32,000 bases of DNA from an uncultured archaeon (GTDB lineage: Archaea; Halobacteriota; Methanosarcinia; Methanosarcinales; Methanoperedenaceae), in the NCBI GenBank assembly GCA_902386205.1, contig CABMIH010000006.1, forward strand, positions 1 to 32,000. Direction: 5' to 3'. Numbering within the stretch: the stretch's first letter is position 1; each line of letters opens with the position of its first letter. The notes under the pieces are model-generated. The model was not told the origin of the DNA and searched no databases. It saw only the letters and a list, made by a program, of their open reading frames with translations. This document shows positions 1 through 28,222 of the stretch, in pieces. Position numbers and translations under genes: made by a program.

Positions 1-600
1 TGCTTTTTCATAATATTCAATAGCTTTTCCGGGTTCACCAAGATTGATTTGAGCTTTTCCGAGGTTACTATAATTCACCCCTTCAGCCTGTCTATCTCCA
101 ATTTCCTGAGCTATTTTCAGAGCGTTGTCATAAAACTCAATGGCTTTTCTTATTTCACCAAGATTGATATGAACATCACCGAGATTACTTAGCCATATGC
201 TTTCATTTCGTTTGTCCCCCATCTCCTGAGCTATTCCCAAAGCTTTTTCATAATACTCAATGGCCATGTTCAATTCGCCAAGATCGCTGTAAGTAATGCC
301 TAGATTACCCAGCCATAAACCTTCATTTTGCTTATCTCCGATTTCCTGTGCTATTTTCAGAGCTTTTTCATAATACTCAATGGCTTTATTCAGTTCGACA
401 AGACTACTAAAAACATTGCCTATGTTACCATACCATATGCTTTCATTTTGCTTATTTCCTATCTCCTGAGCAATATTAAGAGCATTTTCATAATATTCAA
501 TTGTTTCTTGCATTTCCCCACGGGCCTGGTAATCATTGCCAAGACCGATGATAGCAGCGATTACAGCTGGATCATCTGGCTCAAGGCGTAGCGCTCTCAG
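1..600 (-). repeat. Tandem 120-nt coding repeats (40-aa TPR units)
   Basis: The near-identical string agc(t/a)ttttcataata(t/c)tcaat(a/g/t)g recurs at 1, 241, 361 and 481, with a more diverged copy at 121. The period is exactly 120 nt and lies inside the TPR ORF. Confidence 0.85.
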
Positions 601-1923
601 AAGTTCATTCTCAGCTTCCTTATATTGCCCAAGCTGTGATCGTATTTTTCCAATCTTGCCCCGAATCAACCCTTCCCAGCTTGGTCTACGCTGCAAGCTC
701 TGCTCATACCACTGCAGAGTATCTTCAAATCTTTCTTGCTGCTCATAGAGCAAGGCCATTCCCCAGTAGCCTTCGAATGCTTCAGGCGCAACTTCAATGG
801 CTTTCTGAAAAGAGGTCTGAGCATGCTCATAATTTTCTTCTTCGATATAAGCATACCCTTTTGAAATATAGCCGTGAAGGCGCGTATTATCAAGCTCAAT
901 AGCCTTATCATACCACCTGTGAGCTTTTTCATACTGCCAGTTTTGCTGGTAGATGTAGCCCATATGAAGGTAATTGAGGTATTCTCTCTCTGGATCCACA
1001 GCAATGGCACGATTGAGAAGGGGCAATAAGTTACTCTCATGCTCTGCAAACTTTTCAGGGCGCCCGTACAGGTTCAACAGGCAGATATAACCTCTTGGGC
1101 TACCACTCCTTTTCCTGATAGCTTCGCGATACCACTCTTCAGCTTCGTCAAATTTACTCTGCCGTTCGTACCAGTCCCCCATGCAGGTATAACCTCTTGT
1201 CAGGTGTGGATCTTTTTGGATTACTTCCTGAAAATACTTCTTAGCTTTTTCAAATTCATACTTCAGCAACCAATACTCTCCTTGGCCGCAAAGCACCCAG
1301 CTATTATCTGGAGCCAGCTGCTCTCCATTCTGCAATAAATTCTTTGCGGCATCAGGCTTTAGGAGGTTGTATAGCTGGATACTGGCTGCCATGACATACA
1401 TCTCTGCTCGAAGCTCATTGGGAATGCACTCTTGCTTGGCAACGTATTCAATCAAATCATATGCCTCTGGCCATCTGTCGATCAATGCATACCTTGTTGA
1501 TTCTCGGATTTTTTCCAATTTCTGCATAGCGCTAGACGGAAACGGGAAATGTTCCTCAGATAGCGCCAGGCAGAACTTTATTCTAGAGTAGGTTAGAGCC
1601 TCAGCATAGGTTTTAAGCCATTCGGTCCATCCATTCTCTTGATTATTTCTAAATGCGTCATGCAATCGTGCAATCTCGCTCTTTGTGATTTGCATCTCAT
1701 AGTGGTTGCTAAGTGCATTCAGTACTGACTGAAAGCTATTGTTTTCAGTAAGTCCAATTTGCTCATCAACCGCATACAAACATCTAAAGTAATTCTTCTC
1801 TTCTGCAATAGCAGTGCGAATATTCTCGAGCGCTTCAGTGGTACTCCTCATGTCGATATTTGCCAGTGCAGCTTCATAATATGCCTTTGCAATTAATTGA
1901 ATAAATTCATCGGAAATTGTCAT
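1..1923 (-). CDS. TPR-repeat protein (partial; C-terminus lies beyond the window edge)
   Basis: My own translation of the minus strand from ATG (1923-1921) to position 1 found no stop (MTISDEFIQLIAKAYYEAAL...). The distal part is tandem 40-aa TPR units (e.g. AIEYYEKALKIAQEIGDKQNEGLWLGNLGITYSDLGELNM). The start lies 6 nt after the stop of the CHAT gene. It is probably absent from the ORF track because its stop is outside the window. Confidence 0.85.
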   Translation of the reverse strand, partial: MTISDEFIQLIAKAYYEAALANIDMRSTTEALENIRTAIAEEKNYFRCLYAVDEQIGLTENNSFQSVLNALSNHYEMQITKSEIARLHDAFRNNQENGWTEWLKTYAEALTYSRIKFCLALSEEHFPFPSSAMQKLEKIRESTRYALIDRWPEAYDLIEYVAKQECIPNELRAEMYVMAASIQLYNLLKPDAAKNLLQNGEQLAPDNSWVLCGQGEYWLLKYEFEKAKKYFQEVIQKDPHLTRGYTCMGDWYERQSKFDEAEEWYREAIRKRSGSPRGYICLLNLYGRPEKFAEHESNLLPLLNRAIAVDPEREYLNYLHMGYIYQQNWQYEKAHRWYDKAIELDNTRLHGYISKGYAYIEEENYEHAQTSFQKAIEVAPEAFEGYWGMALLYEQQERFEDTLQWYEQSLQRRPSWEGLIRGKIGKIRSQLGQYKEAENELLRALRLEPDDPAVIAAIIGLGNDYQARGEMQETIEYYENALNIAQEIGNKQNESIWYGNIGNVFSSLVELNKAIEYYEKALKIAQEIGDKQNEGLWLGNLGITYSDLGELNMAIEYYEKALGIAQEMGDKRNESIWLSNLGDVHINLGEIRKAIEFYDNALKIAQEIGDRQAEGVNYSNLGKAQINLGEPGKAIEYYEKA

Positions 1924-1929
1924 AGACTC

Positions 1930-3369
1930 TCACCTTCTGGCTCTGATAGGCGGCTCTGACGCCGGCTCCAGCACCTTAGCCTGGGGCTTAATTTCCCCAG
2001 CCTTGGAGCGAATCTGTTTTTGTTTCACTCCATATCCACAAGAGTCACAACCGTAGTCTAAAGTTATTAAGTTTTTACATTGTGGGCATAGTATTAAATC
2101 AGATCCACATGCAAGACATATTTTACGACCGGAAATGATCCATCCCGAGCAGTTGGGATTAGGACACGGAACTTTTGTAGGTTTTACAGGAGTCAATTCA
2201 ATCTTTTTTGGTCTTTTGGGAACATTAAGCGGGGTCTCAGTTTGCAGATAGACGACAGGAGTACCAAAAGCACGATCGTTCCAGGCAGCCCTTACTCTGC
2301 CTGTTCCAACACTGCGGGTAGCCAGTGCATAGCGAGCTTCGCTCACTGCTTCGTCAATCTGCTTGCCTTCACCAATCTGTTGATAAAACTTTGCTGCAAA
2401 AGTAACTGCATCTGCGTTGGAGATTTCGTACTGCATCGCAACAACCACCGGTATCTTGGAATAGACAAGCTCTCGTGCAGTGCTCTTGAAGCCTTCAAAC
2501 GATTCTTTTATAGCTCCCCAACAAGCATGCAAAAAAACAAAATGTGGTTGATGCGCATCGAAAAGTACATTCATCATTTTACTTTCAATCCATTCTGCTT
2601 CCTCTGCGTTTTCTGGGCCTTTCATAGTCTTTTCATATCTTAGGTCTTCCTCCTCTTTTATAAACGCAATTTTTCCTGGTTTTCCATGGCCGATAAAGTG
2701 CAGAATATCTGGCTTGAAACTGTTGATCTTTTCTTTGAGCACAGTAAAGGAAGGATTATCAAGGGGTTCATCCACTTCAATAATACCTTCTGTCTTTAGA
2801 TTTTTAATTTGTTCAATAATGTCATCTGCAGTAATTGTTTGCAATTCTCGCGGATGGGAAAATGCGATTAAAATCTTTAGAGGGCCCTCCTCACGCTCTT
2901 TATGCAATACGCCTGCTTCAGGAACGAACCGTGTAAGAATAAGATCAGTTGTCTTACTTGCCAGGAAAAAGCCTGCAGGTTTATATGGCATGAATAAAAA
3001 CTCCCAGGGATATAAAGCCCAGTTTTCAGCTTCAGGATAGAAGATAAGAATCAATCTTAGGCGTTTTTCCGGATTCTCAAATTTCTCTCTTTCAAAATTA
3101 ATGTATGATTCCTCGAACATTTTTGCGAGGTCGGCGGTGAAAAGCAGCTTGTAAAGATGCTCACCCAGAACCTCCAGATCTTCTCGATTACAGCAGGGGT
3201 TAAGGGAGGGTTTATCACTATCAACCCATTTATTAAAACTTTTGATTGTTCGGAGCGTAAGATCATCTGTTTGTATTTTGCCCTCGGTCTTCCCTTTATG
3301 GTAGTCATCTTCATATTCGATTTTTTCTTCGTCCCATATCGTTAGTCTGCAATCGATATATTTTTTCAT
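1930..3369 (-). CDS. CHAT-domain (caspase-like) protease with C-terminal double zinc ribbon
   Basis: 479-aa ORF with an ATG start. The caspase/CHAT His-Cys dyad context is present (DILHFIGHG ... HFVFLHACWG), as is the LYPWEFLF motif typical of the CHAT N-lobe. The C-terminus carries four CxxC pairs (CPNPNC, CLAC, CPQC, CDSC). Confidence 0.8.
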   Translation of the reverse strand: MKKYIDCRLTIWDEEKIEYEDDYHKGKTEGKIQTDDLTLRTIKSFNKWVDSDKPSLNPCCNREDLEVLGEHLYKLLFTADLAKMFEESYINFEREKFENPEKRLRLILIFYPEAENWALYPWEFLFMPYKPAGFFLASKTTDLILTRFVPEAGVLHKEREEGPLKILIAFSHPRELQTITADDIIEQIKNLKTEGIIEVDEPLDNPSFTVLKEKINSFKPDILHFIGHGKPGKIAFIKEEEDLRYEKTMKGPENAEEAEWIESKMMNVLFDAHQPHFVFLHACWGAIKESFEGFKSTARELVYSKIPVVVAMQYEISNADAVTFAAKFYQQIGEGKQIDEAVSEARYALATRSVGTGRVRAAWNDRAFGTPVVYLQTETPLNVPKRPKKIELTPVKPTKVPCPNPNCSGWIISGRKICLACGSDLILCPQCKNLITLDYGCDSCGYGVKQKQIRSKAGEIKPQAKVLEPASEPPIRARR

Positions 3370-3419
3370 CTTGCTGCCTCAGTTCTAACATATACACGTT
3401 TCTATCATTAGTCATTAAA

Positions 3420-4490
3420 TCACAATCTAAGAATCGAGAGAGATTTTGCCCTTATGCCATCCAACTCTGAAGGCTTTGCCTCTGGTTCACCAAGTCCAGC
3501 AAGCATCTGTGCTCTCTCATGCAAGGCCTTCATTTTTATAATGTACTCATCTGCTAATTTTTCTGCATGCCTGCTGGTCAAATCAGGGCTGAGACTCATG
3601 GTCTGGCACAGGCTTGCCATGTTGGTTTTGGCGCTATCCCAATTATTCGCTTTGGCAACTTGAGCCTCTTCAGTCACTCGTTCCCAAAGCGGATAAAAAG
3701 GTAATGTCGTTATATCGCTTCTTTCTGATGTTTGATTGATACTATATAGCACATAATCAGCATCTCGGAAAGGTTTAGCATCTGCAAGACTTCTGCCATA
3801 GACGAGTTTGTGTTCGCGTACCCAAAGTCCGTTGATGTTCAACTGTGCTTCAGGCATATGGATCAACGCATAATAACTCGGTTCAAAAACTTCTACTGCT
3901 GGGGAGACCTCCTTGCGGAATCCAATGATGGGTACTGTACCATCAAGTTCCAGCAGTGCTTGAACACCATCCAGCACAACACCTGCGACCTTCACATAGG
4001 CAGTGAGGGAGGTGCCAAAATCAAAAACGTTCGCTGCACTCTCAACCATCTGCAGCAGTTTTCTTCCATAGTTCTCACGTTGCACACGATATAGTATTAC
4101 AGACAGAGCTAATTGACCTCCTTTATATGGATGTAATCCCGCCACTTTGGTATCAGAGAAGATCATACCCTCTTTTGGTATCTTGATCCCGTACTTCTCC
4201 ATCATAATTGGGCCAACAACGAATGGCACGGTTTCCACATCTTTGCCATATACGAATTCAGAGACTACAAATACCATAGGATCAAATTTATTGAACCACT
4301 CTCTGCTATAAGCGAGATACATTTCGTTAACTCGCACTTCAAAGTAGTTCTCATTTGGTTTGAAAGCCTTCCGTAACCTTTCACCCTCATCAATATGGTC
4401 AGTAGGAATGGCCACCCGGGTTGGCATTTGTGCCTTGCTTTGACGGATACTATTCCAAATATTTACCCACCTCTCTGTAAGAGATTTCAT
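3420..4490 (-). CDS. Hypothetical protein (first gene of the CHAT/TPR operon)
   Basis: 356-aa ORF with an ATG start preceded by AGGGG. It lies 50 nt upstream of the CHAT gene on the same strand. I recognise no motif. No TM segment is evident. The C-terminal ~90 aa look helical. Confidence 0.7.
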   Translation of the reverse strand: MKSLTERWVNIWNSIRQSKAQMPTRVAIPTDHIDEGERLRKAFKPNENYFEVRVNEMYLAYSREWFNKFDPMVFVVSEFVYGKDVETVPFVVGPIMMEKYGIKIPKEGMIFSDTKVAGLHPYKGGQLALSVILYRVQRENYGRKLLQMVESAANVFDFGTSLTAYVKVAGVVLDGVQALLELDGTVPIIGFRKEVSPAVEVFEPSYYALIHMPEAQLNINGLWVREHKLVYGRSLADAKPFRDADYVLYSINQTSERSDITTLPFYPLWERVTEEAQVAKANNWDSAKTNMASLCQTMSLSPDLTSRHAEKLADEYIIKMKALHERAQMLAGLGEPEAKPSELDGIRAKSLSILRL

Positions 4491-4690
4491 ACTAGCCCCT
4501 TTTTATAACCTTTACTCAAATACTATCTTTTTTATATCCAATATACCTTTCGGTAGCGGATACCTTCTCGTATGCTCAGACTGTGCGGAAAGTAAATTCG
4601 AAAACCTGAGTTCATCTCCCAATTTCATAATAAATCTGGCAGATTTATCCAAAAATTCTCATATAGAAAAACTACCGAGTAATCTCGGAA

Positions 4691-4957
4691 TCAATAAAGA
4701 GAGTCAACTTTAAATGTAGCCATTTCCCCCATCAATTTGTCTACTCCCACAATATTAATGACTCTTGTAATGTCATAAGCAAGCATGGTAAGGCTAATTT
4801 CAGTACCAACTTTATGCAATTTTTTCAATAGCAGATAACCTTGATTAAAAGACCTCTTTATAGTCCTAAAAGGATGTTCAACTACATCCTGCCTTTTCTT
4901 TACCTCGTCTATATTTTCTTTCACTCTTTTTCTATTTTCTTCCATGGGCCTCCTCAA
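4691..4957 (-). pseudogene. IS1182/IS5-like transposase, C-terminal fragment only
   Basis: VEHPFRTIKRSFNQGYLLLKKLHKVGTEISLTMLAYDITRVINIVG matches the conserved C-terminal block of IS1182/IS5-type DDE transposases. The ORF is only 88 aa with a TTG pseudo-start, and the catalytic N-terminal part is missing. Confidence 0.6.
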
Positions 4958-5313
4958 ACTCCATTCGAATCAGAATTCTTCCTCCTTTATAGGAGGTACA
5001 TTTTGGTCTGAATTCACAGCTGCTGCAGTTTTCAGTTCTATATAATTTCTCTTTTCTTGCATCGTATGTTGCCCATAATCTCAATTCGTTTCATGCTTTC
5101 TGATATGAAAAAGTAATCTAACGATGCTTCTTCATGGTTATCTATGAACGCAGTTCATAGCCAACTCTATCCTCTAATGGTAACTTTGATAGATAGCGAT
5201 CAGTATCTCTTTCCAGTACAGCTTTCAAATTATGTATGTCCTCAACCATGTTAAACCTCACTTTATTTGCCTGCTTATAAACTCCAAAGTAGGCTTTTGT
5301 TATGGTTAAAGGA

Positions 5314-5385
5314 AGCCACGGGAGGGATTTGAACCCTCGACCTCGTCCTTACCAAGGACGCGCTATACCCCTAAGCCACCGAGGC
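5314..5385 (-). tRNA. tRNA-Thr (anticodon GGU)
   Basis: Hand-folded cloverleaf on the reverse complement: GCCTCGG-TG-GCTT..AGC-G-CGTCC-TTGGTAA-GGACG-AGGTC-GAGGG-TTCAAAT-CCCTC-CCGTGGC-T. There is one U4:U69 mismatch in the acceptor stem. No CCA is encoded. Confidence 0.85.
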
Positions 5386-5411
5386 ACATATGATCGTTTT
5401 TTCAATTGAAG

Positions 5412-5486
5412 CGGGCCCGGAGGGATTCGAACCCTCGACATCCGGGTTAGAAGCCCGGCGCTATATCCAAGCTAAGCCACGAGCCC
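5412..5486 (-). tRNA. tRNA-Arg (anticodon UCU)
   Basis: Hand-folded. Acceptor GGGCTCG/CGGGCCC, anticodon arm CCGGG-CTTCTAA-CCCGG, T-arm GAGGG-TTCGAAT-CCCTC, discriminator G. An A/T-rich TATA-like box (TTTTTAAAT) lies about 25-35 nt upstream on the minus strand. Confidence 0.9.
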
Positions 5487-5541
5487 AGCGCGAAACCTCA
5501 AGATGTCCTGATGATTTAAAAACCTTTTGTGGAAATGGGAC

Positions 5542-6585
5542 TCAAATCCCATACTCTTTTCTGAGAGCTTCAATCTCAGGCAGGAGTATATAGTCCAGCG
5601 ACGTGCCTTTTGCCCCTTTAATTTCCATCAGGTCAACAATTTCCCTGTACTTCCCGCCGGCAAGTCCGTTGGCAACAAGGGCCGCACCCTCTGCGGCTTC
5701 TTTTACGTTCTTCACATGAAAACCCTCAAGTCTTCTCACAGGCGCTATGTCGATATGTTTTTTAAATTCCTCAAATAATCCCTTTGTCCTTGAGATTCTT
5801 CCAGAGACCAGGATTTCCTGCGGTTTTACAGAAGCCGTGAGCGAAAGGATATCTTTGATCCCGCTTTCCAGGTATGCATTCAGGGCTTCATCATTTTCCA
5901 TCAATTTTTCGGGGGTTCCTGCGATTGTCCCGACCCCGCCTTTAAAAATAAGTTCTTTACTGATGCCGCCTAAAAGATACGCAAGCTCAGCATCCATACC
6001 TCCCATTGAAAGAAAACCAATATTCCCCGAGCTTCCCCCGATCCCATCTACGATTTTCCCATCTTTAACAGCTACGGCAGCAGTATATCCAAAACCCATC
6101 TCAAGCATTATGAATGATGTTTCATTATAATTTTTATTATTCCTCAATGCCTGGTCCCTGATGCCAAGGGCTGCACAGCAGAGCTTATCGGCAGTACCCA
6201 TATCGACTTTATTAAATTTCCTGTATGCTGGAACCGTGGGTAGATGGATAACCCCCGGAATGAACATGATGGGGAGCCCTTTTTGTTTCAGGTGGTTTAT
6301 TGACCTTCGCATTCCAAGAATACTTTTATCATTCCCTTTTTTAATAAGTGACATAAGGAAGAGCTCACGCTCACCTATATCTTTGATATTTGAAAGAGGA
6401 ATGCCAAAGCCTGATGGTCCAACTACCAGGTCGGCCTTTGTGTCCACAATGATATCAGAAATCTTCCCCGGATCATTAATTATATCATGTGTAGATATGG
6501 AAGTATTAAGAATTACATTATCGTCTTCCAGGCCGCAGAAATCAAAACTTTTGGTTCCCGGGTCTATTCCGATTACTCTGACCAT
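5542..6585 (-). CDS. DUF1464-family ASKHA (actin/sugar-kinase-like) ATPase-fold protein
   Basis: 347 aa. The N-terminal phosphate-1 motif VIGIDPGTKSFD and later glycine-rich motifs (GFGYTAA, DGIGGSSG) are typical of the ASKHA fold. Overall it resembles archaeal DUF1464 proteins as I recall them. Confidence 0.75.
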   Translation of the reverse strand: MVRVIGIDPGTKSFDFCGLEDDNVILNTSISTHDIINDPGKISDIIVDTKADLVVGPSGFGIPLSNIKDIGERELFLMSLIKKGNDKSILGMRRSINHLKQKGLPIMFIPGVIHLPTVPAYRKFNKVDMGTADKLCCAALGIRDQALRNNKNYNETSFIMLEMGFGYTAAVAVKDGKIVDGIGGSSGNIGFLSMGGMDAELAYLLGGISKELIFKGGVGTIAGTPEKLMENDEALNAYLESGIKDILSLTASVKPQEILVSGRISRTKGLFEEFKKHIDIAPVRRLEGFHVKNVKEAAEGAALVANGLAGGKYREIVDLMEIKGAKGTSLDYILLPEIEALRKEYGI

Positions 6586-6635
6586 ACCCCAAAGTAATCA
6601 TCCTGACTCATTAATGTTTTTATTTTTCCGGATAA

Positions 6636-6818
6636 TTATGTCTTTGGCGGTTTCCTTTCTACCACTTTCATCCAATGGCCCGGACTGACCTCAGCAAGAA
6701 CAGGAACATTGGGCGCAAGTTCATCAAAGTAAATCGTTTCCTCACCCAGCGGGTGGATATCACCGCCGCATACAGGACATTTTTCAAAAAACGTTTTTCT
6801 TTTTCTAAGCTCTGCCAT
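6636..6818 (-). CDS. Small hypothetical protein with a CPxCG zinc-knuckle
   Basis: 60 aa with ATG preceded by a strong GGGAGG RBS. It lies 50 nt upstream of the DUF1464 gene on the same strand. Confidence 0.55.
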   Translation of the reverse strand: MAELRKRKTFFEKCPVCGGDIHPLGEETIYFDELAPNVPVLAEVSPGHWMKVVERKPPKT

Positions 6819-7320
6819 AAACCTCCCTTCACTGTTAGAGTTGGATTAAGACAGGATAAAAGTATTGGTGAAAGAAATCGAGGAAAAAAAGAACGACCGG
6901 ACCGGACTTGCTTAAGCCATTATTAAAGCCTTCATGGCGTCGTTGCTCAGATAAATTTCAAACATTCAATTCGGCAAGGGCATCATCAAGTCTGATTCTT
7001 TCGCCACGCCTCATCATTGTATCTCTGGACACTTTGGATTGCGACAATGAGAGACCTCCAACAGGCTATAGTTTGATAGAAGTAAGATGTTATGAAAAGT
7101 GCCGAGGTATGGTTGGAATGAGCCGAAAAGCGGCTACCCCATGCAAATCATTCATTTCTTATCATTTCCCGAAATAATTTTCTATTTCTTAACTTCTTTT
7201 ACCTTTTGTACTGTTTTCATAAAATTCACCATCCAAACATCTTGAAAGCAAAGCCCAACCAGACCTCTGGGTGCATCTTTCTTATGAAAGCCTGATTTGG
7301 GGTTTCGGCTCGTCTCAGAT

Positions 7321-7833
7321 TCAATGATCCGTGAGGTCGATTGCATGATCTGCTTTACCATTTTTATCCCGTTTATTGGCATAGAATTGCGTCCCATGAT
7401 CAGATATTACGGACCTGATCGGATACCAGTAGCTATATTTTTCAATTGCATCTGTCAATACCTTCAGAGAGTTCTCTTCAGTAGCGTTGTCAAATTCTTC
7501 TGCTGCCAGCACTTTTCTCGATGCGTCATCCAGAATAGTGCACAACTGCTTTCCATTGACCTTACTTTCGTGCCAATCGATATGAACCGCTGATAGCGAA
7601 TGTTTCCGTTCATATCGTATCCAGGGCTTTCTTCGCTTCTGCTTGCTCTCCTGCTCTTTGGCAAATCCGAATTCGAGCTTCAGAAACTTCCTTTTTTGGT
7701 CTCCCGGGTTGACGCCAATTGCAGGTATATGACCTGTTAATCTGTATATTTTATGGATCTGCCTGAACCGTCTTGGTGTAATACCGAGATACTTAGAATG
7801 AGGAAATTTTTTTGGGAAAAGATATCTTTCAGA
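7321..7833 (-). pseudogene. rve/DDE-type (integrase-core) transposase remnant, truncated at both ends
   Basis: HTH-like LGITPRRFRQIHKIYRLTGHIP, then the first two acidic motifs (VHIDWHE; LDDASR; VISDHGTQF). The ORF stops before the catalytic Glu region. The apparent N-terminus of ORF 7321..8016 runs antisense into hppA and is spurious. ORF 7182..7397 may be a frameshifted continuation. Confidence 0.6.
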
Positions 7834-7841
7834 GGTAAACA

Positions 7842-7853
7842 ATATATATAAAT
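7842..7853 (+). promoter_or_regulatory. TATA-like box upstream of hppA
   Basis: ATATATATAAAT lies 36-47 nt upstream of ATG 7889. A GGAGG lies 5 nt upstream of that ATG. Confidence 0.4.
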
Positions 7854-7888
7854 AGCACCAAGTGGGCGAAGATATTCTGGAGGATATT

Positions 7889-9955
7889 ATGGATTCTTTG
7901 TTATATTCGGCCCCTCTTGCGGGCTTGGTCGGTTTATTATTCGCAGTGTATCTTGCTTTGTATATACTCAAACTGGATGCAGGGACAGAAAGAATGAAAG
8001 CCATCGCATCTGCCATACAGGAAGGTGCAATGGCTTACCTGAACAGGCAGTACAGGACAGTGGCGATCATTGCCGTGATACTTGCCATCTTGATCGCAGT
8101 TGCCATAAATATTGAGACCGCCGCAGGGTTTATCCTGGGCGCGGTCATGTCAGCCGCGGCCGGTTATCTCGGCATGAACATATCCGTAAGGAGCAACGTG
8201 CGCTGCGCGAATGCCGCAAAAGAAGGCATGCAGAAAGCACTGACCGTTGCGTTCAAGGGTGGTGCTGTTACAGGAATATCAGTGGCAAGCCTTGCGCTCC
8301 TGGGCGTAAGCGGACTCTACATCGCTTTCGGCGGAGATATAAAAGCTGTTGAGAAAGTAGTCGGGTTCGGCTTTGGCGCTTCGCTCATAAGCCTTTTCGC
8401 AAGGATTGGCGGGGGGATATACACCAAGGCGGCCGATGTGGGAACTGACCTTGTGGGGAAAGTGGAAGCAGGTATTCCCGAGGACGACCCACGCAACCCG
8501 GGTGTTATTGCTGACAATGTAGGAGATAACGTGGGCGACTGCGCCGGGATGGCAGCCGACCTTTTCGAAACCTATGCAGTGACGGCGCTCGGAGCGATGC
8601 TCATTGGAGTTACTGTCATTGATAAATACCCGAATGCGATCCTTTATCCGCTTGTGCTCGGCGCGGCAGCCATAATCGCCTCCATAATCGGTACCTTCTT
8701 TGTAAAGTTAGGAAAGTCCGGCGACATAATGGGGGCTATGTATAAAGGCGCGATAGTGGCAGGATTGATATCTGTAGTGCTGTTTTACCTGATAACACAG
8801 AAGTTGATGGGGGGCAATACAGGTCTTTTCATCAGCGCGCTTGTAGGTCTTGGCGTAACAGCGGCAATGATCATTATCACCGAATATTACACAGCCACGA
8901 CCCATGGCCCGGTAAAGGATATAGCCAATGCATCAGTAACAGGCCCCGGGACAAATATCATAACCGGGCTTGCTGTTGGCCTTCAGAGTACTGCTTTGCC
9001 TGTAATGGTCATATGCGCCGGGATATTGATCTCATTTTTTGTTAACGGCGGCGTTGCCAACCCATCAATGGGACTTTACGGGATAGCCATAGCTGCGGCA
9101 GCCATGCTTTCAGTTACAGGCATCATAATTTCCATCGACTCATATGGACCAATAACAGATAATGCAGGCGGGATAGCAGAAATGGCGGAGATGTCAAAGG
9201 AAGTCAGAGACATCACCGATCCGCTTGATGCAGTGGGCAATACCACAAAGGCAGTTACGAAGGGTTATGCCATAGGCTCAGCAGCCCTGGGGGCGCTTGC
9301 GCTTTATGCGGCATACAGCAGTGAAATCAACAAACTGCTTATGGAGCAGGGGAGGCCGGAACTGGTGCTTAAACTGTCTGATCCAATGGTCTTAATAGGT
9401 CTGCTCATCGGAGGAATGATCCCTTTCCTCTTCGCTAGCTTCCTCATGAGAGCTGTGGGAAGGGCGGCATCAACTATAGTTTCTGAGATCAGGCGGCAGT
9501 TCAGGGAGATAGCCGGAATCATGGAAGGAAAGGCAAAACCCGACTACGGGCGCTGCGTGGATATCGTGACAATAGCAGCCCAGAAGGAAATGATCATACC
9601 AGGACTCCTCGCAGTGCTTTCCCCTCTCCTTGTGGGCTTCATTTTCGGCCCGGCGGCGCTTGGAGGCCTTCTTATCGGGGTTATTATTTCAGGTCTGCTT
9701 CTTGCCCTCATGATGACGACAGGCGGGGCGGCATGGGATAACGCCAAGAAGTACATCGAGTCTGGCAACCTTGGAGGTAAGAGATTACCCGATGGCAGCA
9801 AGAACCCGACGCACGCTGCGGCAGTGGTGGGCGACACAGTGGGCGACCCTACGAAGGATACGGCAGGTCCTGCGATCAATCCGCTGATAAAAGTAATGAA
9901 TATAGTGGCGATATTGTTTGCGGCACTGATACTGAAATACAGCCTGATCAGATAA
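7889..9955 (+). CDS. hppA: Membrane-bound H+-translocating inorganic pyrophosphatase, K+-independent type
   Basis: Highly hydrophobic ~690-aa protein with signature motifs [34 protein letters not shown] and [13 protein letters not shown] prefer ATG 7889 (GGAGG RBS) over the GTG at 7862 given in the ORF track. Confidence 0.95.
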
Positions 9956-9999
9956 AAAAAAGATGCGGCTGGATCAGCCGCATTCACTCAATATTTTTT
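9956..9999. terminator. Bidirectional terminator-like element between convergent hppA and the peroxidase gene
   Basis: An A-run (9954-9960), then a perfect 9-bp stem 9963-9971/9975-9983 (ATGCGGCTG-gat-CAGCCGCAT), then T6 at 9994-9999. Confidence 0.55.
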
Positions 10000-10008
10000 A
10001 GCTTATTT

Positions 10009-11325
10009 TCAATGATTCTTGTCTTTTGTTCGACACCCATCGTCCTTACAATCGTCTCTGTCTGAGAGGGTCTTCAAGAACGCGACAATGGCATCCTCTT
10101 CATTACTTGTTAGTTTAAGGTCGCCAACTTCATTTGTATTCATATTCTCAGAAACTTCCGGTGCCGGCCAGCAATTTACACCCGGCTGCGGCGGCAAAGT
10201 CAATTGGGGATCACACATTGGCAGCGTATCTCTTGTGTTATAGAAGTGCACGATCAGCTCCAAAGACTTGAAGTAACCATTGTGCCCGTATGCTTTTATA
10301 AAAGATGGATCTGGTCTCTTGTCCACATTGCGCAGGGTCGGAACCTTGAACTTGCCCATCTCTTTCTGGTACACATCCTGAGAAGAACCGGTGCTCTTGA
10401 GGTATCCGCCAAGTCCATAATCTACCCAGTTGAGCCCATCCTTGTTGAAATTTTCCCACTTTTCATTCCATAGTGATTCATAGTAGAATGGATTCAGGGG
10501 ATTCTTTGGGATTCCGATGTTATCATAAGTATAGTCTGTGAACAACGGCGGTACATGGCAATTACCACATTTTGCTTTACCCTTAAATAAATCCAGTCCC
10601 ATCATTTCCTGCGGGGTAAGCTCGGTATTTCCTTTCAAATAGTCATCGTATCTGGATGTGAATGAACTCACTTCTTTTGATCTCTCATAGGCTGCGATTG
10701 ATCTCGCAGTGTTATCGTATGCCGTGACAACTTTAGTGCGGTCTTCGGGTGACAGCTTGACCATTACATTTTCTTGCGAACAAACCACATTAATATCTTC
10801 CGGCCACTCGATGGTAAATATATTGCCGTCCCAGGCCTTTTTATAAAGATTTTTGTAATTTGAAGTTGCAATCCGATAAACAACACATGCAGCATCCGGC
10901 AAGGCCTGTTCCAGAGGATTCAGAAACGGTCCCTTGGCCTGCTCAGCGAGCGGATCTTGCATTATCAGGCCCGTCGCCCTTCCATCCCAGAACATGCCGC
11001 CTACCCATGAACCCAGGCTGGTATTATAATGCAGAACAGGACTATCGCCTGCATAAGCAGCTGCCGGCGGTTTACGGTTCCCGAACCTGCCCGCGATAGA
11101 ACCTTCATAGACCGATCCTAATACGTTTATTATAGATTCAGGCCCGGTATACCCGACCTGCGGCCCATGACAGGCCGCACATGCCTGATTTTGGTTGACC
11201 GACATCTTTTCATCGAAAAATACATATCTTCCGAGCTTTTCCTTATCCGATAATGCTGCCGCAGTTCCGGTAGCGGCGGTCAGCAGCAGAACCACCGCCA
11301 AAATCCATATTCTTTTACCCAACAT
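10009..11325 (-). CDS. Di-haem cytochrome c peroxidase (CCP/MauG family), secreted
   Basis: 438 aa with an N-terminal signal/anchor (WILAVVLLLTAATGTAAA) and two CxxCH motifs in the spacing typical of the family (CAACHG ... CGNCHVPPLFTD). ATG is preceded by GGGAGGA. Confidence 0.8.
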   Translation of the reverse strand: MLGKRIWILAVVLLLTAATGTAAALSDKEKLGRYVFFDEKMSVNQNQACAACHGPQVGYTGPESIINVLGSVYEGSIAGRFGNRKPPAAAYAGDSPVLHYNTSLGSWVGGMFWDGRATGLIMQDPLAEQAKGPFLNPLEQALPDAACVVYRIATSNYKNLYKKAWDGNIFTIEWPEDINVVCSQENVMVKLSPEDRTKVVTAYDNTARSIAAYERSKEVSSFTSRYDDYLKGNTELTPQEMMGLDLFKGKAKCGNCHVPPLFTDYTYDNIGIPKNPLNPFYYESLWNEKWENFNKDGLNWVDYGLGGYLKSTGSSQDVYQKEMGKFKVPTLRNVDKRPDPSFIKAYGHNGYFKSLELIVHFYNTRDTLPMCDPQLTLPPQPGVNCWPAPEVSENMNTNEVGDLKLTSNEEDAIVAFLKTLSDRDDCKDDGCRTKDKNH

Positions 11326-11512
11326 AGTTAATTCCTCCCTTTATTGCGTTTTTATGTCGGGAATCCGGCAGCTATAGCTGCGAATCATTTTAAATCGCGC
11401 AAATGTCCCCTGATACGATTAATCACACGCCCGATCAAAAACCTTTTTCCCGAGAGCCCACTCTGTCCACTGGTCTCATCATTTATATGAGGATTTTTGT
11501 GATATATACTTT

Positions 11513-13327
11513 ATGGTCGACGATAAATTATATTATTTACGAAATAATCATAAGCTTTTTACTGATGTAGAGCAACTCTGTATTATGTTTTTGAAGGAGA
11601 AGATATTCGCAGGGGAAGGATTGATTAAAGCAGACCTTGTGTTAAAAAATTGCAGGATAGTCAATGTAAATACTAAAGAGATCACAAAAGGTGATATAGC
11701 CCTGAGGTCAGGGTTCATAGCAGGTATTGGCGATGTTGCCGAATTGAAAAATGCGAAAACAGACGTGATAGATCTGAAGAACGCGCATGTGTGCCCAGGA
11801 TTGATAGATGGCCATGTGCATTTTGAATCGAGTATGGTAACACTCACGCAATTTGCAGAACAATCCATCCGGCACGGGACAACTGGCATAGTCATTGATC
11901 CGCACGAAATAGCCAATGTCCTCGGTCCCAGGGGCATAAGGCTTGTGCTGCGTGAGGCGAAAGTGCTCCCAATAGATATTTTTGTAACAATCCCGTCATG
12001 TGTGCCCTCAAGCCCGCTTGAGACATCAGGCGCCAATATCGGATTAAAGGAGACGAGAAAGTTTCTTGATACAAAATTCGTTGTTGGGCTTGGTGAGATG
12101 ATGGATTATCCAGCCGTTCTTAGCGGTGCTCCTGAAAAGCTCAGGATGATCTCAGAAATTCTTGATAGAAAACTCGTTGTTGACGGTCACTGCCCGGGTT
12201 TACATGGAAAAGAGCTTTTCGGCTATCTGAGCGCCGGGATATCAAGCGACCACGAGTCCGTAACCTACGAAGAAGCGCTTGAAAAAGCACGCCTTGGCAT
12301 GAAGATCATGCTTCGGGAAGGATCGGCTGCAAAATGTCTCGATGAATTCATCCCCAAGCTTATTCGCGAAGGGATATCGCTTGAAAATTTTTTCTTTGCG
12401 ACGGACGATAAGAATTCCGAAGGCCTGATAAATGGACACATGGATGTGCTGGTAAGGGCTGCAATCAGGCTCGGGATAGACCCTATCCAGGCTGTCTCAA
12501 TGGCCACAATCAACACGGCGCGCCATTACAGGGTGGACCAGCTTGTTGGATCGATAAGCATAGGCCGAAGGGCGAATTTGATAATACTTGATCACCTGAA
12601 GGATTTCAAGATCAGGAACGTGGTAATACGGGGCATGTTAAATCCAAAGGTTGAAAGAATAGAATATCCCCGATACGTTTTCAGGACATTGAAATATAAA
12701 AGAATAGTACCTGATGACCTGAAGATCAAATCCCCTGATAAGACGGTATTTGCGCATGTCATAGAAATCGTACCAGGCCGGATAATTACAAACAGGACCA
12801 TCGAAGAGTTGAATACCCGGAATAAAGTCGTTCAGCCAGACGTGGAACGCGATATACTTGCCATTGCAGTTATAGAACGCCACGGAAAATCTGGAAACAT
12901 TGGCCTGGGTTTTGTCCGGGGCCTTGGCCTGAAAGAAGGCGCCATCGGCCAGAGCATTGCCCATGATTCGCATAACGTTATCCTTGCGGGCACGAACTTT
13001 GAGGATATGGCGCTCTGCGCGAACAAGCTCAGGGAACTGCAGGGCGGGATAGTGATCGCCAAGGGCAGGGTAATAGATTACCTCAGCCTGCCTTTTGCAG
13101 GAATTCTTAGCACTGATAGCTTATATAATGTGGATACAAAACTAAAAGAACTGCATAGCAAGGTCAGGAAGATGGGATGTAAGCTCGATGCGCCTTTTGT
13201 TCAGATGTCATTCCTTTCGCTTCCAGTCATACCCTCACTCAAAATAACTGATAAAGGGCTGGTGGACGTGGATGAGTTTAAAATAATAGAGTCTATAAAA
13301 AGCGTAGATCCTATAAAAATCCCCTGA
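11513..13327 (+). CDS. ade: Adenine deaminase
   Basis: Amidohydrolase metal motif CPGLIDGHVHFESS, plus length and overall pattern typical of Ade. The true start may be the ATG at 11585 (MFLKEKIFAGEGLIKADLVLKNCRIVNV...). Confidence 0.85.
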   Translation: MVDDKLYYLRNNHKLFTDVEQLCIMFLKEKIFAGEGLIKADLVLKNCRIVNVNTKEITKGDIALRSGFIAGIGDVAELKNAKTDVIDLKNAHVCPGLIDGHVHFESSMVTLTQFAEQSIRHGTTGIVIDPHEIANVLGPRGIRLVLREAKVLPIDIFVTIPSCVPSSPLETSGANIGLKETRKFLDTKFVVGLGEMMDYPAVLSGAPEKLRMISEILDRKLVVDGHCPGLHGKELFGYLSAGISSDHESVTYEEALEKARLGMKIMLREGSAAKCLDEFIPKLIREGISLENFFFATDDKNSEGLINGHMDVLVRAAIRLGIDPIQAVSMATINTARHYRVDQLVGSISIGRRANLIILDHLKDFKIRNVVIRGMLNPKVERIEYPRYVFRTLKYKRIVPDDLKIKSPDKTVFAHVIEIVPGRIITNRTIEELNTRNKVVQPDVERDILAIAVIERHGKSGNIGLGFVRGLGLKEGAIGQSIAHDSHNVILAGTNFEDMALCANKLRELQGGIVIAKGRVIDYLSLPFAGILSTDSLYNVDTKLKELHSKVRKMGCKLDAPFVQMSFLSLPVIPSLKITDKGLVDVDEFKIIESIKSVDPIKIP

Positions 13328-13554
13328 GATTTATGGATAAATTATAGCAGTGGAATAGCCATACTGCTAGTTACGTGGTTATAACTACTTAAGAAAGATA
13401 AATTAACTTATATTTTTCAAAAAATCCAAGAGTATAAATCACAAATTATTTAAGGCATCAAGATAACAATAATCTAAAAAACGGGATAAAAACGGGTACA
13501 AAATCCACTACGGATAGGAAAACGTATTAAAATGATTCAGAGAGGTAAAGAATA

Positions 13555-14511
13555 ATGTTACTTATTGGTGCGAGCGTATGCTCATTATTGAAAAAGAAAT
13601 ACGCAATGATCTTAATTGCAGCATTAATTTTATTAATCCCGGTCGTCTCTGCCCAGCAGGACGTATCCTGTTACCACTGTCACACAGAGGTAGTCACCCA
13701 GTTCAGGAATAACATCCATTACCAAGGGGGTTTCTCCTGCGCAGATTGCCATGGAGGCGTTTCGGAGTCTAACGCCACGGTGATATCAGCCAATGCGATG
13801 TCGGGAAATTTTATTGGAAAACCTTCAAGAGACCATATAACCGACATATGCTCAAAATGCCATAGTCAGGAAGCAAGCGACTACAAACAGAGCATCCACT
13901 GGTATGCTATTCAGAAAGGCCATCCTGAAGCAGCAACATGCACGGACTGTCATGGAGTCCATGAAATACGTGCAATAGCGGATAACAAATCTTCATCGAA
14001 CCACCAGAACAGTCCTGCAACATGCGCAAAGTGCCACTCGAACAAGGAATTAATGAGTGCATGGTATTATGGAATCAAAGCTGACAGGATCGACACATAT
14101 AAAGAATCCTTCCACTGGAAGGCACTGCGAAATGGATACAACGTAGTCGCAACCTGCTCGGATTGTCATAATAATCACATCACAAAATCCCATGAAGATC
14201 CTTCATCAAGCACATACCCCGACAACCTCCCCAAAACATGTGGTAAGGAAGGCTGCCATCCAGGGACAAGATTTGACGCCAAGGTAGCAGCAGGGCTTGT
14301 ACATGACAAGGAATCATTGCATACAGGAGAACTTGTCTTCAACCAGTCACGCCTGGAACCGCAGATGAAGGCGTATTTCCTTGGCCCATTTGACCTTGCT
14401 TACTGGATAGCCATATTTTTCAAGATATTGACAACAGGCGTTATAGGTCTCTTTGCAGCCATGGTAGTTCTGGATTTCGCATCAAGATTCAAGATCCACA
14501 GGAGATGGTGA
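13555..14511 (+). CDS. Membrane-anchored multihaem c-type cytochrome (7 haem motifs)
   Basis: Signal peptide, six CxxCH motifs (CYHCH, CADCH, CSKCH, CTDCH, CAKCH, CSDCH), one CX4CH (CGKEGCH), and a C-terminal TM helix (YWIAIFFKILTTGVIGLFAAMVVL). Confidence 0.9.
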   Translation: MLLIGASVCSLLKKKYAMILIAALILLIPVVSAQQDVSCYHCHTEVVTQFRNNIHYQGGFSCADCHGGVSESNATVISANAMSGNFIGKPSRDHITDICSKCHSQEASDYKQSIHWYAIQKGHPEAATCTDCHGVHEIRAIADNKSSSNHQNSPATCAKCHSNKELMSAWYYGIKADRIDTYKESFHWKALRNGYNVVATCSDCHNNHITKSHEDPSSSTYPDNLPKTCGKEGCHPGTRFDAKVAAGLVHDKESLHTGELVFNQSRLEPQMKAYFLGPFDLAYWIAIFFKILTTGVIGLFAAMVVLDFASRFKIHRRW

Positions 14512-14573
14512 TCATGCGAAAGCAATCATTAATTGAGGTTTCATATTCTAAGGAATTGAAAGGAGATAATACG

Positions 14574-15272
14574 ATGGGTGAAGTTTTTTTTAAACGTTTT
14601 ACATTCAATCAGCTTGTACAGCACTGGATAATGATTGGCACGTTCATGGCTTTGGTAGTAACCGGGATGCCTGTCAAATTCCCTGATGCATGGTGGTCTC
14701 CTGTGATCATCAACATGGTCGGGGGATTTGAAATGAGAACATTGATACACCATGCGGCCGGCATTTCTATGGTCGTCCTTGGTATATACCATGTCACCTT
14801 CCATGTTTTTGTGGATAAGGAGTCCCTGCTTGACAGGAAAGTTTGGCCGACATTGAAAGATGCAAAGGACTTCTGGCAAACGGTACTTTTTTACTTCGGG
14901 AAAGCAGAAAACCCGAAATACGGCAGGTATAGCTGGAAAGAAAAATTCGATTACTGGGGAGCCTTCTGGGGTATGGTGATGCTTTGCGTAACAGGTCTCA
15001 TAATGATGTTCCCGTTCATTGCAATGGAATACATACCTTATGCATATGTCCATCTTGCAACGATTATCCATACCGATGAAGCGCTGCTGGCGACCCTGTT
15101 CATTTTCATAGTCCACTGGTGGAATGTTCATTACAGTCCGGAAGTATTCCCAATGTCGAAAGCATGGCTGACTGGTAACCTTTCAGAGGAACAGATGAAA
15201 CATGAACATCCCCTTGAATATGAAGAGATTATGAGACAGATGCGGGAAAGAAGCGAAAAGGTGCCTGATTGA
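14574..15272 (+). CDS. b-type cytochrome, FdnI/Ni-Fe-hydrogenase cytochrome-b-like membrane subunit
   Basis: Four or five TM helices with conserved His residues (QHWIM, IHHAAG, YHVTFH, IIHTDE, VHWWNVH). I prefer ATG 14574 (AAGGAG RBS) over 14505. It lies immediately downstream of the multihaem cytochrome gene. Confidence 0.8.
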   Translation: MGEVFFKRFTFNQLVQHWIMIGTFMALVVTGMPVKFPDAWWSPVIINMVGGFEMRTLIHHAAGISMVVLGIYHVTFHVFVDKESLLDRKVWPTLKDAKDFWQTVLFYFGKAENPKYGRYSWKEKFDYWGAFWGMVMLCVTGLIMMFPFIAMEYIPYAYVHLATIIHTDEALLATLFIFIVHWWNVHYSPEVFPMSKAWLTGNLSEEQMKHEHPLEYEEIMRQMRERSEKVPD

Positions 15273-16536: not shown

Positions 16537-16564
16537 AACAAAATTGTTATATAACATTTTTGTT
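16537..16564. terminator. AT-rich imperfect palindrome between convergent dys and the HEPN gene
   Basis: 14-nt arms with one mismatch, centred on 16550/16551 (core TGTTAT|ATAACA). It is flanked by A8 and T5 runs and overlaps the HEPN stop codon. Confidence 0.35.
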
Positions 16565-17003
16565 ATGCAATCTGAATTTTATAATTTTTCTTTAGAAATG
16601 GCAACAAAATCTTAAAAACCATTTGCATTCTCGTTTCATTCATTTTCGCATCATCAAGAGTGTATATTTGAGATGGAATCCTTATTCCCTCATCGCTCCA
16701 GTCAGGATACCTTGAAATTGCCCAGTTTTCTTCAAGAGGGACAACCCCTTCTTCGAGCGTCACCATTATTTGTGCGTCCATTTTATCTTCAAATTCTTTC
16801 AAGAAAAAGGAGAAGATTTCATGTTTATAGATGCCAATTTTGCCTTCTGCTGCAAGGCAAGCTTTTAGCAATTTTTCCACTGCCTGCTGGGCATGATAAA
16901 CCGCAAGGTTGAATTTTTCTTTTTCGATAAGCATGGAAACAACATCATAGTCATTATTTGCCTCTATAAGATACGCTTTTGCGACATCCAGTTTCTTTAT
17001 CAT
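16563..17003 (-). CDS. HEPN-domain protein (toxin-like partner of MNT)
   Basis: 146 aa. AVYHAQQAVEKLLKACL is typical of classical HEPN. There is a 4-nt overlap with the upstream MNT gene. The usual Rx4-6H appears as KIGIYKH. Confidence 0.75.
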   Translation of the reverse strand: MIKKLDVAKAYLIEANNDYDVVSMLIEKEKFNLAVYHAQQAVEKLLKACLAAEGKIGIYKHEIFSFFLKEFEDKMDAQIMVTLEEGVVPLEENWAISRYPDWSDEGIRIPSQIYTLDDAKMNETRMQMVFKILLPFLKKNYKIQIA

Positions 17004-17419
17004 GCCACCACTTCCCAGTAATCCTCATGGTTAACAACCCTGCTCGGGACTATCTGTTTAAAATGTTTTAATAATTTATCAAATGTGCCGTCATCATATA
17101 ATGGAATCCCATAGTTGAGAATATTGAGAATAAGCGGATTAAGTGTTTCCAGTGAGGTTTCCAGTTCTTCGATTGACGCAACCTTTGGAGATACCTGGCC
17201 TACTGTGCGGTAAAGCCTTTTCCTTAACTCTATTTCAAGGTCTCTGCGTTCCATCCAGTTTGCGAATTTCTTGTTTAAGATGATAAGAATGTCAATGTCA
17301 GAATATTTTTGAGCGTAGCCTTTCGCATAGGAACCATATAAAATTATACTGCAAAGTTTGTCTTGAAATTTGGCTTTTAATTCTGATACTACTTTTTCGG
17401 AAAGCTTGGAAGAAATCAT
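17000..17419 (-). CDS. Minimal nucleotidyltransferase (MNT) domain protein
   Basis: GSx10SDxD signature LYGSYAKGYAQKYSDIDILIIL. I prefer ATG at 17419; the track start at 17428 is TTG. Confidence 0.8.
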   Translation of the reverse strand: MISSKLSEKVVSELKAKFQDKLCSIILYGSYAKGYAQKYSDIDILIILNKKFANWMERRDLEIELRKRLYRTVGQVSPKVASIEELETSLETLNPLILNILNYGIPLYDDGTFDKLLKHFKQIVPSRVVNHEDYWEVVA

Positions 17420-17431
17420 TTTAATCAACTC

Positions 17432-23967: not shown

Positions 23968-24127
23968 AGACGATTAATCATGAAGCATCTGAGGAATCAT
24001 GTAGCAAAAATGTTCTTTGAAACCTGTATGATGGCGAATCCAAATGTGGTGATATGTTTTTAATCAAATAAATATCTATAAATAATTGATAAAAGAGTAT
24101 ATATGAAACGGTAGTGATATTTATTTG

Positions 24128-24604
24128 ATGATGGAAAAAATCAATCGTAAGAAAAAAAATAATAAATATTTACTTATATTACCTTGTTCGAAACAGAAAA
24201 AAGAACTGTACAGTACATCTGCCCTGGAATTATACGACGGCCCCTTTTATCGTGTAGTCCGAAAAAATCAACCAAAAAATTTAGACATTTTAATTCTTTC
24301 TGCTAAATATGGATTAATCAGTTCTGACAATCTTATTTCTTATTATGACCAAATAATGACCCCTAAAAGAGCTGAAGAACTTGCCAGTAAGATTATGATG
24401 AAACTGGAAAGGATATTTACAAATGAAGATTATAATGAAGTATTCATAAATCTTGGAAAAAACTACTTGCCTGCATTAGATGGATCAAAAAAAATACTTG
24501 ATGAACATAATGTAAATTGGGCAAATGGACAAATTGGCGAGAGACTGCATCAACTTAAAACATGGCTCAATACAATTAGAGCAACAGAGAGATTGGTCTC
24601 ATGA
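24128..24604 (+). CDS. DUF6884-like small protein (function unknown)
   Basis: YLLILPCSKQKK...ALELYDGPFYRVV...ILILSAKYGLISSDNLISYYDQIMT matches the pattern I recall for DUF6884 proteins (ACSxxK ... LY ... ILSAKYGL ... YD). ATG 24128 or 24131; the track start 24125 is TTG. Its stop overlaps the helicase ATG (ATGA). Confidence 0.6.
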   Translation: MMEKINRKKKNNKYLLILPCSKQKKELYSTSALELYDGPFYRVVRKNQPKNLDILILSAKYGLISSDNLISYYDQIMTPKRAEELASKIMMKLERIFTNEDYNEVFINLGKNYLPALDGSKKILDEHNVNWANGQIGERLHQLKTWLNTIRATERLVS

Positions 24605-27015: not shown

Positions 27016-27026
27016 AAGGAATAAAC

Positions 27027-28220: not shown

Positions 28221-28222
28221 AT

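Follow-up and report, generated by a model that had tools for sequence, protein, structure and literature searches.

In bacterial gasdermin operons, a small effector gene adjoins the gene for a CHAT or C14 protease that carries, or is accompanied by, tetratricopeptide repeats (TPRs) or other repeats. In the type III-E CRISPR system Craspase, which consists of Cas7-11, the TPR-CHAT protein Csx29, and Csx30, a CHAT protease with TPR repeats cleaves a co-encoded protein. The conflict systems catalogued by Kaur et al. in 2020 reportedly combine a nucleoside triphosphatase (NTPase) of the STAND, MoxR, or GTPase type with paired EAD adaptors in one operon. Ten families of protease-associated effectors were listed by Evans et al. 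in 2025, namely, metallo-beta-lactamase (MBL), alpha/beta hydrolase, Pepco, EACC1, PCaspase, bGSDM, CATASP, MPE, CalpT, and Csx30 (PMC12642450), and CATRA modules are named "Caspase and TPR repeat-associated" in PMC8195603 and PMC12657218. Here we describe a three-gene cassette of related layout in an uncultured archaeon. The window that we analyzed is the first 32,000 nucleotides (nt) of contig C6 (CABMIH010000006.1), which belongs to a genome of 2.79 Mb in 88 contigs that is archaeal by its gene content (ribosomal protein S28e, PurP-type DUF1246/DUF1297, DUF1464, and deoxyhypusine synthase). The cassette encodes a protein of 356 amino acids (aa), here called protein A, a CHAT protease, and a TPR protein. 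Protein A would represent a new effector family and is neither a gasdermin nor a CATRA module. We propose that the cassette is a self-contained, NTPase-free, protease-gated effector unit of the conflict or abortive-infection type that the archaeon acquired horizontally, an overall scheme to which we give about an even chance.

The three genes of the cassette are real genes, and all lie on the minus strand. Gene A (3420 to 4490, with an ATG start, as read from the open reading frame [ORF] and its translation) encodes the proposed protease substrate or effector. It is followed after 50 nt (3370 to 3419) by the CHAT gene (1930 to 3369, also with an ATG start) and then, after a further 6 nt (1924 to 1929), by the TPR gene (1 to 1923). 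The ORF listing agrees with the three co-directional genes and the two spacers that an initial annotation of this DNA had reported. A synteny scan in which each species was represented by one genome returned 60 loci, and 39 of these, all from other genomes, keep the gene order A, CHAT, and TPR on a single strand; a further three are truncated behind the CHAT gene. The loci with the complete triad span about ten phyla, including Acidobacteriota, Bacteroidota, Chloroflexota, Verrucomicrobiota, Planctomycetota, Actinomycetota, Pseudomonadota, and Ignavibacteria. A second archaeon of the host's phylum also carries the triad (A, 60% identical; CHAT, E value of 3e-137; TPR, E value of 3e-178), as does a metagenome-assembled genome (MAG) from the Asgard lineage Hodarchaeota, where two CHAT genes are present, and the triad was found on metagenome contigs too. 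The pairwise identities of A, CHAT, and TPR are correlated across loci (Spearman coefficients of 0.62 to 0.75). The three genes are inherited as a unit, and the co-conservation by which the initial annotation had wished to see the grouping checked is borne out by the 39 ordered loci, the archaeal and metagenome triads, and these correlated identities. Mean pairwise identity is 38% for A, 30% for CHAT, and 26% for TPR. A is thus the best conserved of the three, which fits a constrained effector combined with a faster-evolving sensor.

Protein A is not the orphan that it was first taken for. A word-indexed search returned at least 360 homologues, the best 120 of them at 46 to 65% identity, from Hodarchaeota, Balneolaceae, cyanobacteria, Syntrophorhabdus, Acidobacteria, and other sources. 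A profile search of the family, exhaustive over 1.84 billion representatives, matched 1,344 clusters (defined at 50% identity) at E values up to 1e-3 and 442 at E values up to 1e-30. None of the homologues from the word-indexed search carries a precomputed Pfam domain, and A itself has no match in Pfam (E value up to 1), PADLOC, or NCBIfam and none in a profile search of the PDB at E values up to 10. In an alignment of 40 sequences, 25 positions are invariant and about 50 are near-invariant; the conserved positions include the polar residues N55, E56, R63, H120, S301, and D303 and the motif TRVAGLHPYRGG. The AlphaFold model (predicted local distance difference test [pLDDT] score of 81.5, predicted template modeling [pTM] score of 0.77) consists of an N-terminal helix, a beta-rich core (residues 24 to 254) with a helical hairpin of lower confidence inserted at residues 143 to 181, and, at the C terminus, a bundle of helices about 90 residues long (266 to 355). 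With Foldseek, this model has no match in the PDB at an E value below 1e-3, and the best fold matches are C2 domains and the C2-plus-helical part of PI3K, with E values of 3e-3 or weaker and low TM-scores. In the libraries searched (PDB and BFVD), the sole clearly significant structural match is an uncharacterized protein of 323 aa from the giant virus Hokovirus HKV1 (BFVD A0A1V0SF49; E value of 1e-6, TM-score of about 0.42, 10% identity). A second match in the viral library, barely under an E value of 1e-3, was rejected as spurious (probability of 0.16, TM-score of 0.11). We also noted a protein of 951 aa in an Acetobacteraceae MAG (locus L062, positions 2189 to 5044) in which the A domain is C-terminal and the 640 preceding residues have no Pfam match; an ORF of 732 aa lies ahead of it, likewise without a Pfam match.

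Protein A showed no match to the known effector families with which it was compared. A gasdermin identity was ruled out, as A has no Pfam or PADLOC hit and no PDB fold at an E value below 1e-3, and no gasdermin is present among the 50 matches listed. The likeness to CATRA systems lies in the layout: in both cases, a module of about 350 aa for which no activity is known lies beside CHAT and TPR, which occur together in one locus here as well, and one relative of A is fused to an effector domain. We examined two CATRA loci. In each, a CHAT protease (with TPR hits in one locus and CHAT only in the other) has as its neighbor a CATRA-N/C module, about 350 aa long, that is fused N-terminal to a GT4 or TIR effector. 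CATRA-N (PF20269) and CATRA-C (PF20270) have no match in the window's genome or in 15 genomes that carry A; as a positive control, the same Pfam models recovered genuine CATRA proteins from 10 of 301 actinobacterial genomes. When the alignment of A was compared with that of CATRA by hhalign, the homology probability was 0.4%. On the absence of CATRA-N/C from the window's genome and those 15 genomes and on the hhalign result, A was ruled out as a CATRA module; by analogy, it may be a functional analogue of one. The organization differs as well, since A is free-standing and CHAT and TPR are split, whereas one of the two CATRA loci examined has TPR and CHAT in one polypeptide. The modules of Evans et al. 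are alike in that a latent death effector lies beside a protease coupled to interchangeable sensors, and in the case of Pepco, activation consists of the loss of a short C-terminal tail (PMC12642450). Pepco (117 aa) and EACC1 (about 110 aa) are both much smaller than protein A, and the sensor of the triad is a TPR protein without an NTPase. The Pfam copy that we used holds at least the CHAT, Peptidase_C14, Lactamase_B, Metallophos, alpha/beta-hydrolase, CATRA-N, and CATRA-C families. With no Pfam hit to its sequence, A fits none of the Pfam models for the Evans et al. families, and at E values up to 1 no hit places it among the Pepco, EACC1, MBL, or alpha/beta-hydrolase effectors.

Outside the triad, genes of the A family are linked to proteases of several folds. 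A is found beside Peptidase_C14 caspases in cyanobacteria, between a NACHT-HEAT gene and a C14-EAD7 gene (in the order NACHT-HEAT, A, C14-EAD7), with a VMAP-MoxR ternary system, and, in one context, directly downstream of a gene for a CHAT-NB-ARC-TPR protein. In some nontriad loci, a CHAT gene lies one to two genes upstream of A, and in others A is beside a serine carboxypeptidase of family S10 or an M12 metallopeptidase. A homologues occur on four plasmids, and among plasmid homologues of about 25% identity the adjoining gene encodes a C1 peptidase (Sporomusa) or a CHAT protein (Rhizobium). By our count, a peptidase gene lies within two genes of A in at least 53 of the 60 genome loci, and the peptidases that accompany A have at least five unrelated folds (CHAT, C14, C1, S10, and M12). 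This proximity is the same genomic signature that has been reported for gasdermins and other protease-activated effectors. One relative of A is fused to a DUF900 alpha/beta hydrolase, with the A part N-terminal, and alpha/beta hydrolases are one known class of caspase-activated effectors (PMC12642450). One further relative sits amid AbiE, PIN, and type I restriction-modification genes. The suggestion in the initial annotation that the 356-aa protein could be the substrate or effector of the protease gains support from these peptidase, STAND, and VMAP neighbors.

A candidate cleavage site can be recognized close to the C terminus of A. In an alignment of 174 homologues, Leu or Met occupies position 333 in 144 sequences and Arg in 10, and Gly, Ser, or Ala occupies position 334 in 144. 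This dipeptide is followed by a linker with insertions and deletions and then by a conserved amphipathic helix that ends the protein in I-L-x-L/M, the tail beyond the dipeptide usually being 22 to 24 residues long. The confidence of the model falls to a pLDDT of 65 at residues 331 to 340. The gasdermin of Runella is cut by its CHAT protease after Leu247, the dipeptide Leu247-Gly248 being essential, in a loop ahead of a 21-residue C-terminal inhibitory peptide (Johnson et al., bioRxiv 10.1101/2021.06.07.447441). The [L/M/R]-[G/S/A] dipeptide, linker, and C-terminal helix of A match this arrangement, which makes the dipeptide a candidate CHAT cut site. In the archaeal protein, the candidate is Leu333-Gly334 (codons at 3489 to 3494), and together with the 23-residue tail Gly334-Leu356, a putative inhibitory peptide, it occupies 3423 to 3494 of the minus strand. 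That this bond is the exact cut site is a tentative proposal, built on the Runella parallel, and we rate it as somewhat less than even. The cassette shares with gasdermin systems an adjacent caspase-like protease with a repeat sensor. In addition, A has a motif ([L/M]-[G/S/A], 23 residues from its end) at which cleavage may occur by analogy, and pore formation might then follow. The cassette differs from gasdermin systems in the greater length of A (356 aa), in the helical bundle of about 90 residues at its C terminus, and in having protease and TPR on separate genes. The residue at P1 (Arg versus Leu or Met) covaries in the charge-complementary direction with CHAT positions 80 (Glu versus Lys) and 299 (Leu versus Arg). 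We gave this covariation no weight because there are just five Arg-type loci, which may belong to one clade.

The middle gene encodes a protease of 479 aa that belongs to the CHAT family. It matches the Pfam model PF12770 over residues 69 to 351 with an E value of 1.4e-13 and 51.4 bits (cutoff, 24). His228 (in HFIGHG; codon at 2686 to 2688) and Cys283 (in LHACWG; codon at 2521 to 2523), which as read from the sequence delimit the stretch from 2521 to 2688 on the minus strand, are invariant in 39 aligned orthologues and again in a 32-sequence alignment. The intact caspase-like His/Cys dyad of the initial annotation is therefore correct, and this invariance together with the CHAT fold indicates that the dyad was not misidentified. 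The AlphaFold model (pLDDT of 78.9) is matched by Foldseek, with a probability of 1.00, to SAVED-CHAT, Csx29, separase, and caspases, and DdvA is also among the matches. On the intact dyad and the modeled fold, we consider that the protease is catalytically competent, a prediction from sequence and structure models. The closest solved CHAT domain, both by profile (E value of 9e-13 in a PDB search) and by fold (Foldseek E value of 4e-13), is that of the SAVED-CHAT filament 8tl0 of type III CRISPR and of CBASS, antiphage systems whose signaling is based on cyclic oligonucleotides. The protease of the window differs from it in having no SAVED sensor; instead, its N-terminal part is beta-rich and zinc ribbons are present at its C terminus. 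The two ribbon motifs are formed by eight Cys within residues 402 to 444 (2035 to 2175, minus strand), as read from the sequence and from a weak Pfam DZR match (E value of 0.004) at residues 405 to 445, and the CHAT orthologue of Balneolaceae likewise has Zn_ribbon_15/DZR. Craspase is alike in that it combines CHAT with TPR, and the protease has Csx29 as one of its best structural matches. The cassette is not a Craspase, as TPR and CHAT are separate genes here, neither Cas7-11 (gRAMP) nor Csx30 is found among the ORFs and Pfam hits of the window, and no repeat array is present in positions 1 to 9000.

The third gene is incomplete. Base 1 of the window is the first base of C6, so the TPR gene was cut by the assembly and not by the choice of window. 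The part present encodes 641 residues, of which about 185 at the N terminus have no significant Pfam match and form a helical non-TPR domain (bases 1369 to 1923); TPR units follow. These values conform to the initial annotation, which had described at least 640 aa with a nonrepeat N terminus of about 170 aa and then TPRs. The N-terminal part is conserved, as orthologue alignments start at residue 1. At the open end, the gene is 93% identical, without gaps and in the right orientation, to the first 260 nt of contig C65, and its reading frame stays open for 560 codons into C65 (probable continuation, C65 positions 3 to 1685). From the overlap and the open frame, the full-length TPR protein is probably about 1,110 to 1,190 aa long; TPR orthologues are 810 to 1,177 aa long. 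The overlap (positions 1 to 260 in both the window and C65) falls within near-identical TPR units of 120 nt; either the assembly was interrupted in the repeat, or it collapsed two strain variants. The TPR protein of about 18 of 40 related cassettes has at its end a domain of about 300 aa that matches positions 325 to 655 of the Pfam model FHIPEP, for example, at L070 positions 9179 to 11829 in another archaeal genome (G072) and at L017, L024, L026, L035, L053, L061, and other loci. These positions correspond to FlhA_C, the soluble ring-forming cytoplasmic domain of FlhA/SctV, without the membrane part. In 14 related cassettes, a fourth co-directional gene encodes a second protein of the FlhA_C type. 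Although such domains are common in relatives, none was found in the window's own genome.

The cassette also departs from NTPase-centered systems. Neither the cassette nor its upstream flank nor the probable continuation contig encodes an NTPase, and a STAND- or MoxR-centered conflict system was rejected for this locus. Other A-family loci do carry NACHT, NB-ARC, MoxR-VMAP, and EAD7 parts, unlike the cassette of the window. The initial annotation had suggested looking for an NTPase and an integrase among the neighbors; neither lies beside the cassette, whether in the upstream flank or on C65.

In the scheme that we favor, the large TPR protein (about 1,100 aa) would be both sensor and scaffold and would hold or activate the CHAT protease. 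Once triggered, the presumably competent protease would cut A in the exposed variable loop that follows the conserved Leu333-Gly334, in the manner of the Runella gasdermin and other protease-activated effectors, and the cut would remove the C-terminal helix, about 23 residues long, by which A is held latent. Cleaved A may then arrest or kill the cell. This last step is the weakest. The membrane would be the most likely site of action because the core of A bears a weak resemblance to C2 domains and a lipase-type alpha/beta hydrolase forms part of one fused relative; as a target, it is nevertheless doubtful. Protein A could instead be a securin-like pseudosubstrate, an inhibitor, or an adaptor that silences the CHAT protease or presents targets to it, in which case the cleavage of host or invader proteins by CHAT would be the lethal or regulatory event. 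Separase, which is held by a pseudosubstrate inhibitor, is one of the nearest structural relatives that the protease has; A always lies immediately upstream and is co-inherited; and the CATRA module of about 350 aa occupies a regulatory position, N-terminal to a GT4 or TIR effector, just as one A relative is N-terminal to a hydrolase. The five unrelated peptidase folds that occur with A fit a shared substrate better than a fold-specific inhibitor, however, and most cassettes contain no other effector gene, so that we regard such a role as unlikely. Equally unlikely, in our view, is that A is a latent enzyme, or zymogen, whose catalytic site is unmasked by cleavage and which does not act on membranes. 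For an effector, its conservation is unusually high (25 invariant and about 50 near-invariant positions in 40 sequences, with polar residues and the motif TRVAGLHPYRGG), and protease-activated MBL nuclease and alpha/beta-hydrolase modules offer a precedent (PMC12642450), but A matches no enzyme family in sequence or fold in Pfam, NCBIfam, the PDB, or BFVD.

It could also be argued that the cassette is not a conflict system at all but a housekeeping or developmental proteolytic regulator similar to HetF, a CHAT protease that acts in cyanobacterial cell division. The NCBIfam model for HetF is weakly matched (E value of 0.04), and most triads are flanked by ordinary metabolic genes. The distribution of the family speaks against such a function. 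Of 301 genomes from the host's phylum, just 3 have an A homologue, and the one other genome of the host genus that was searched has none; archaeal and bacterial copies are 60 to 65% identical, which points to transfer between the domains; there are plasmid copies; and A occurs repeatedly with NACHT, NB-ARC, VMAP-MoxR, and EAD7 parts. The distribution is patchy and cross-domain, and we consider a HetF-like regulator very improbable. A distant A homologue of 26% identity was noted in a genome of the host's order (G273; L071 positions 5386 to 6468), and phmmer found no CHAT or TPR homologue within 14 kb around it.

Several observations weigh against the protease-gated effector scheme. The flanks of the triads are mostly housekeeping or ordinary metabolic genes, with no enrichment in defense islands. 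No A homologue was found in phage records, and none of the PADLOC models matches A. In some clades of Bacteroidota, the C-terminal dipeptide is degenerate and its alignment position is shifted. The predicted fold is uninformative, as weak matches to C2 domains and PI3K leave the membrane target a guess, and the invariant polar residues N55, E56, R63, H120, and D303 could just as well indicate an enzyme.

Death effectors under protease control are coming to be seen as a principal strategy of immunity in prokaryotes and as the evolutionary origin of caspase-gasdermin signaling. The A family is not among the ten effector families of the 2025 survey, yet it comprises at least 1,344 clusters that are unannotated and have no solved structural relative. 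In its widest form, our proposal is that the family is a structurally new class of protease-activated death effectors, parallel but unrelated to gasdermins, that has spread horizontally, including to Asgard archaea, and whose commonest partner is a new kind of NTPase-free sensor platform, made up of a CHAT protease and a TPR protein with FlhA_C in many relatives; we put this forward as a speculation that may well not hold. If it is true, an inflammasome-like assembly would have been built from a part of the flagellar and type III export gate (FlhA_C). If the prediction holds, an executioner fold not seen before and a TPR sensor design without an NTPase would be added, with Leu333-Gly334 as a directly testable candidate cut site. 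It would also show such modules moving between bacteria and archaea, including an Asgard lineage that bears on the origin of the eukaryotic cell death machinery.

The surroundings of the cassette fit an integration hot spot. The noncoding region ahead of gene A (4491 to 4690, minus strand) contains A/T-rich, TATA-like boxes 15 to 50 nt before the ATG and may include the promoter of the operon. Farther upstream in the sense of transcription, an integration-type context (4691 to 5486, minus strand) comprises a DDE transposase fragment (4691 to 4957; Pfam DDE_Tnp_1, E value of 7.7e-4) and, as predicted by ARAGORN, tRNA-Thr (5314 to 5385) and tRNA-Arg (5411 to 5486). DUF1464 and H+-pyrophosphatase genes follow, and an rve integrase-core fragment is located at 7321 to 8016. 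It is the transposase fragment, the tRNA pair, and the rve fragment, all between the cassette and the H+-pyrophosphatase gene, that suggest the hot spot. On the other side, the probable continuation contig C65 has, past the TPR gene, genes for a flavodoxin, a flavodiiron-type protein, a nitroreductase, and an ABC transporter.

Other parts of the window deserve a brief mention. A block of low GC content at 24125 to 30141 (31 to 36%, compared with about 42 to 50% around it) encodes a UvrD-type helicase (804 aa), a PD-(D/E)XK nuclease (397 aa), a TGT-like protein (450 aa), and small ORFs, and it may be a horizontally acquired DNA-targeting defense or repair island. At 16563 to 17428, a HEPN-domain protein (146 aa; Pfam E value of 8e-13) overlaps a same-strand ORF of 142 aa by 4 nt; judged from the HEPN scan and the layout, this resembles a HEPN-MNT toxin-antitoxin pair. 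Finally, no McrA was found in the host genome, for which reason a methanogen or ANME archaeon was rejected as the host, and positions 10009 to 15272 of the window encode a di-heme cytochrome c peroxidase, a multiheme c-type cytochrome, and a cytochrome b561-type protein, a cluster that hints at a respiratory or metal-reducing lifestyle.

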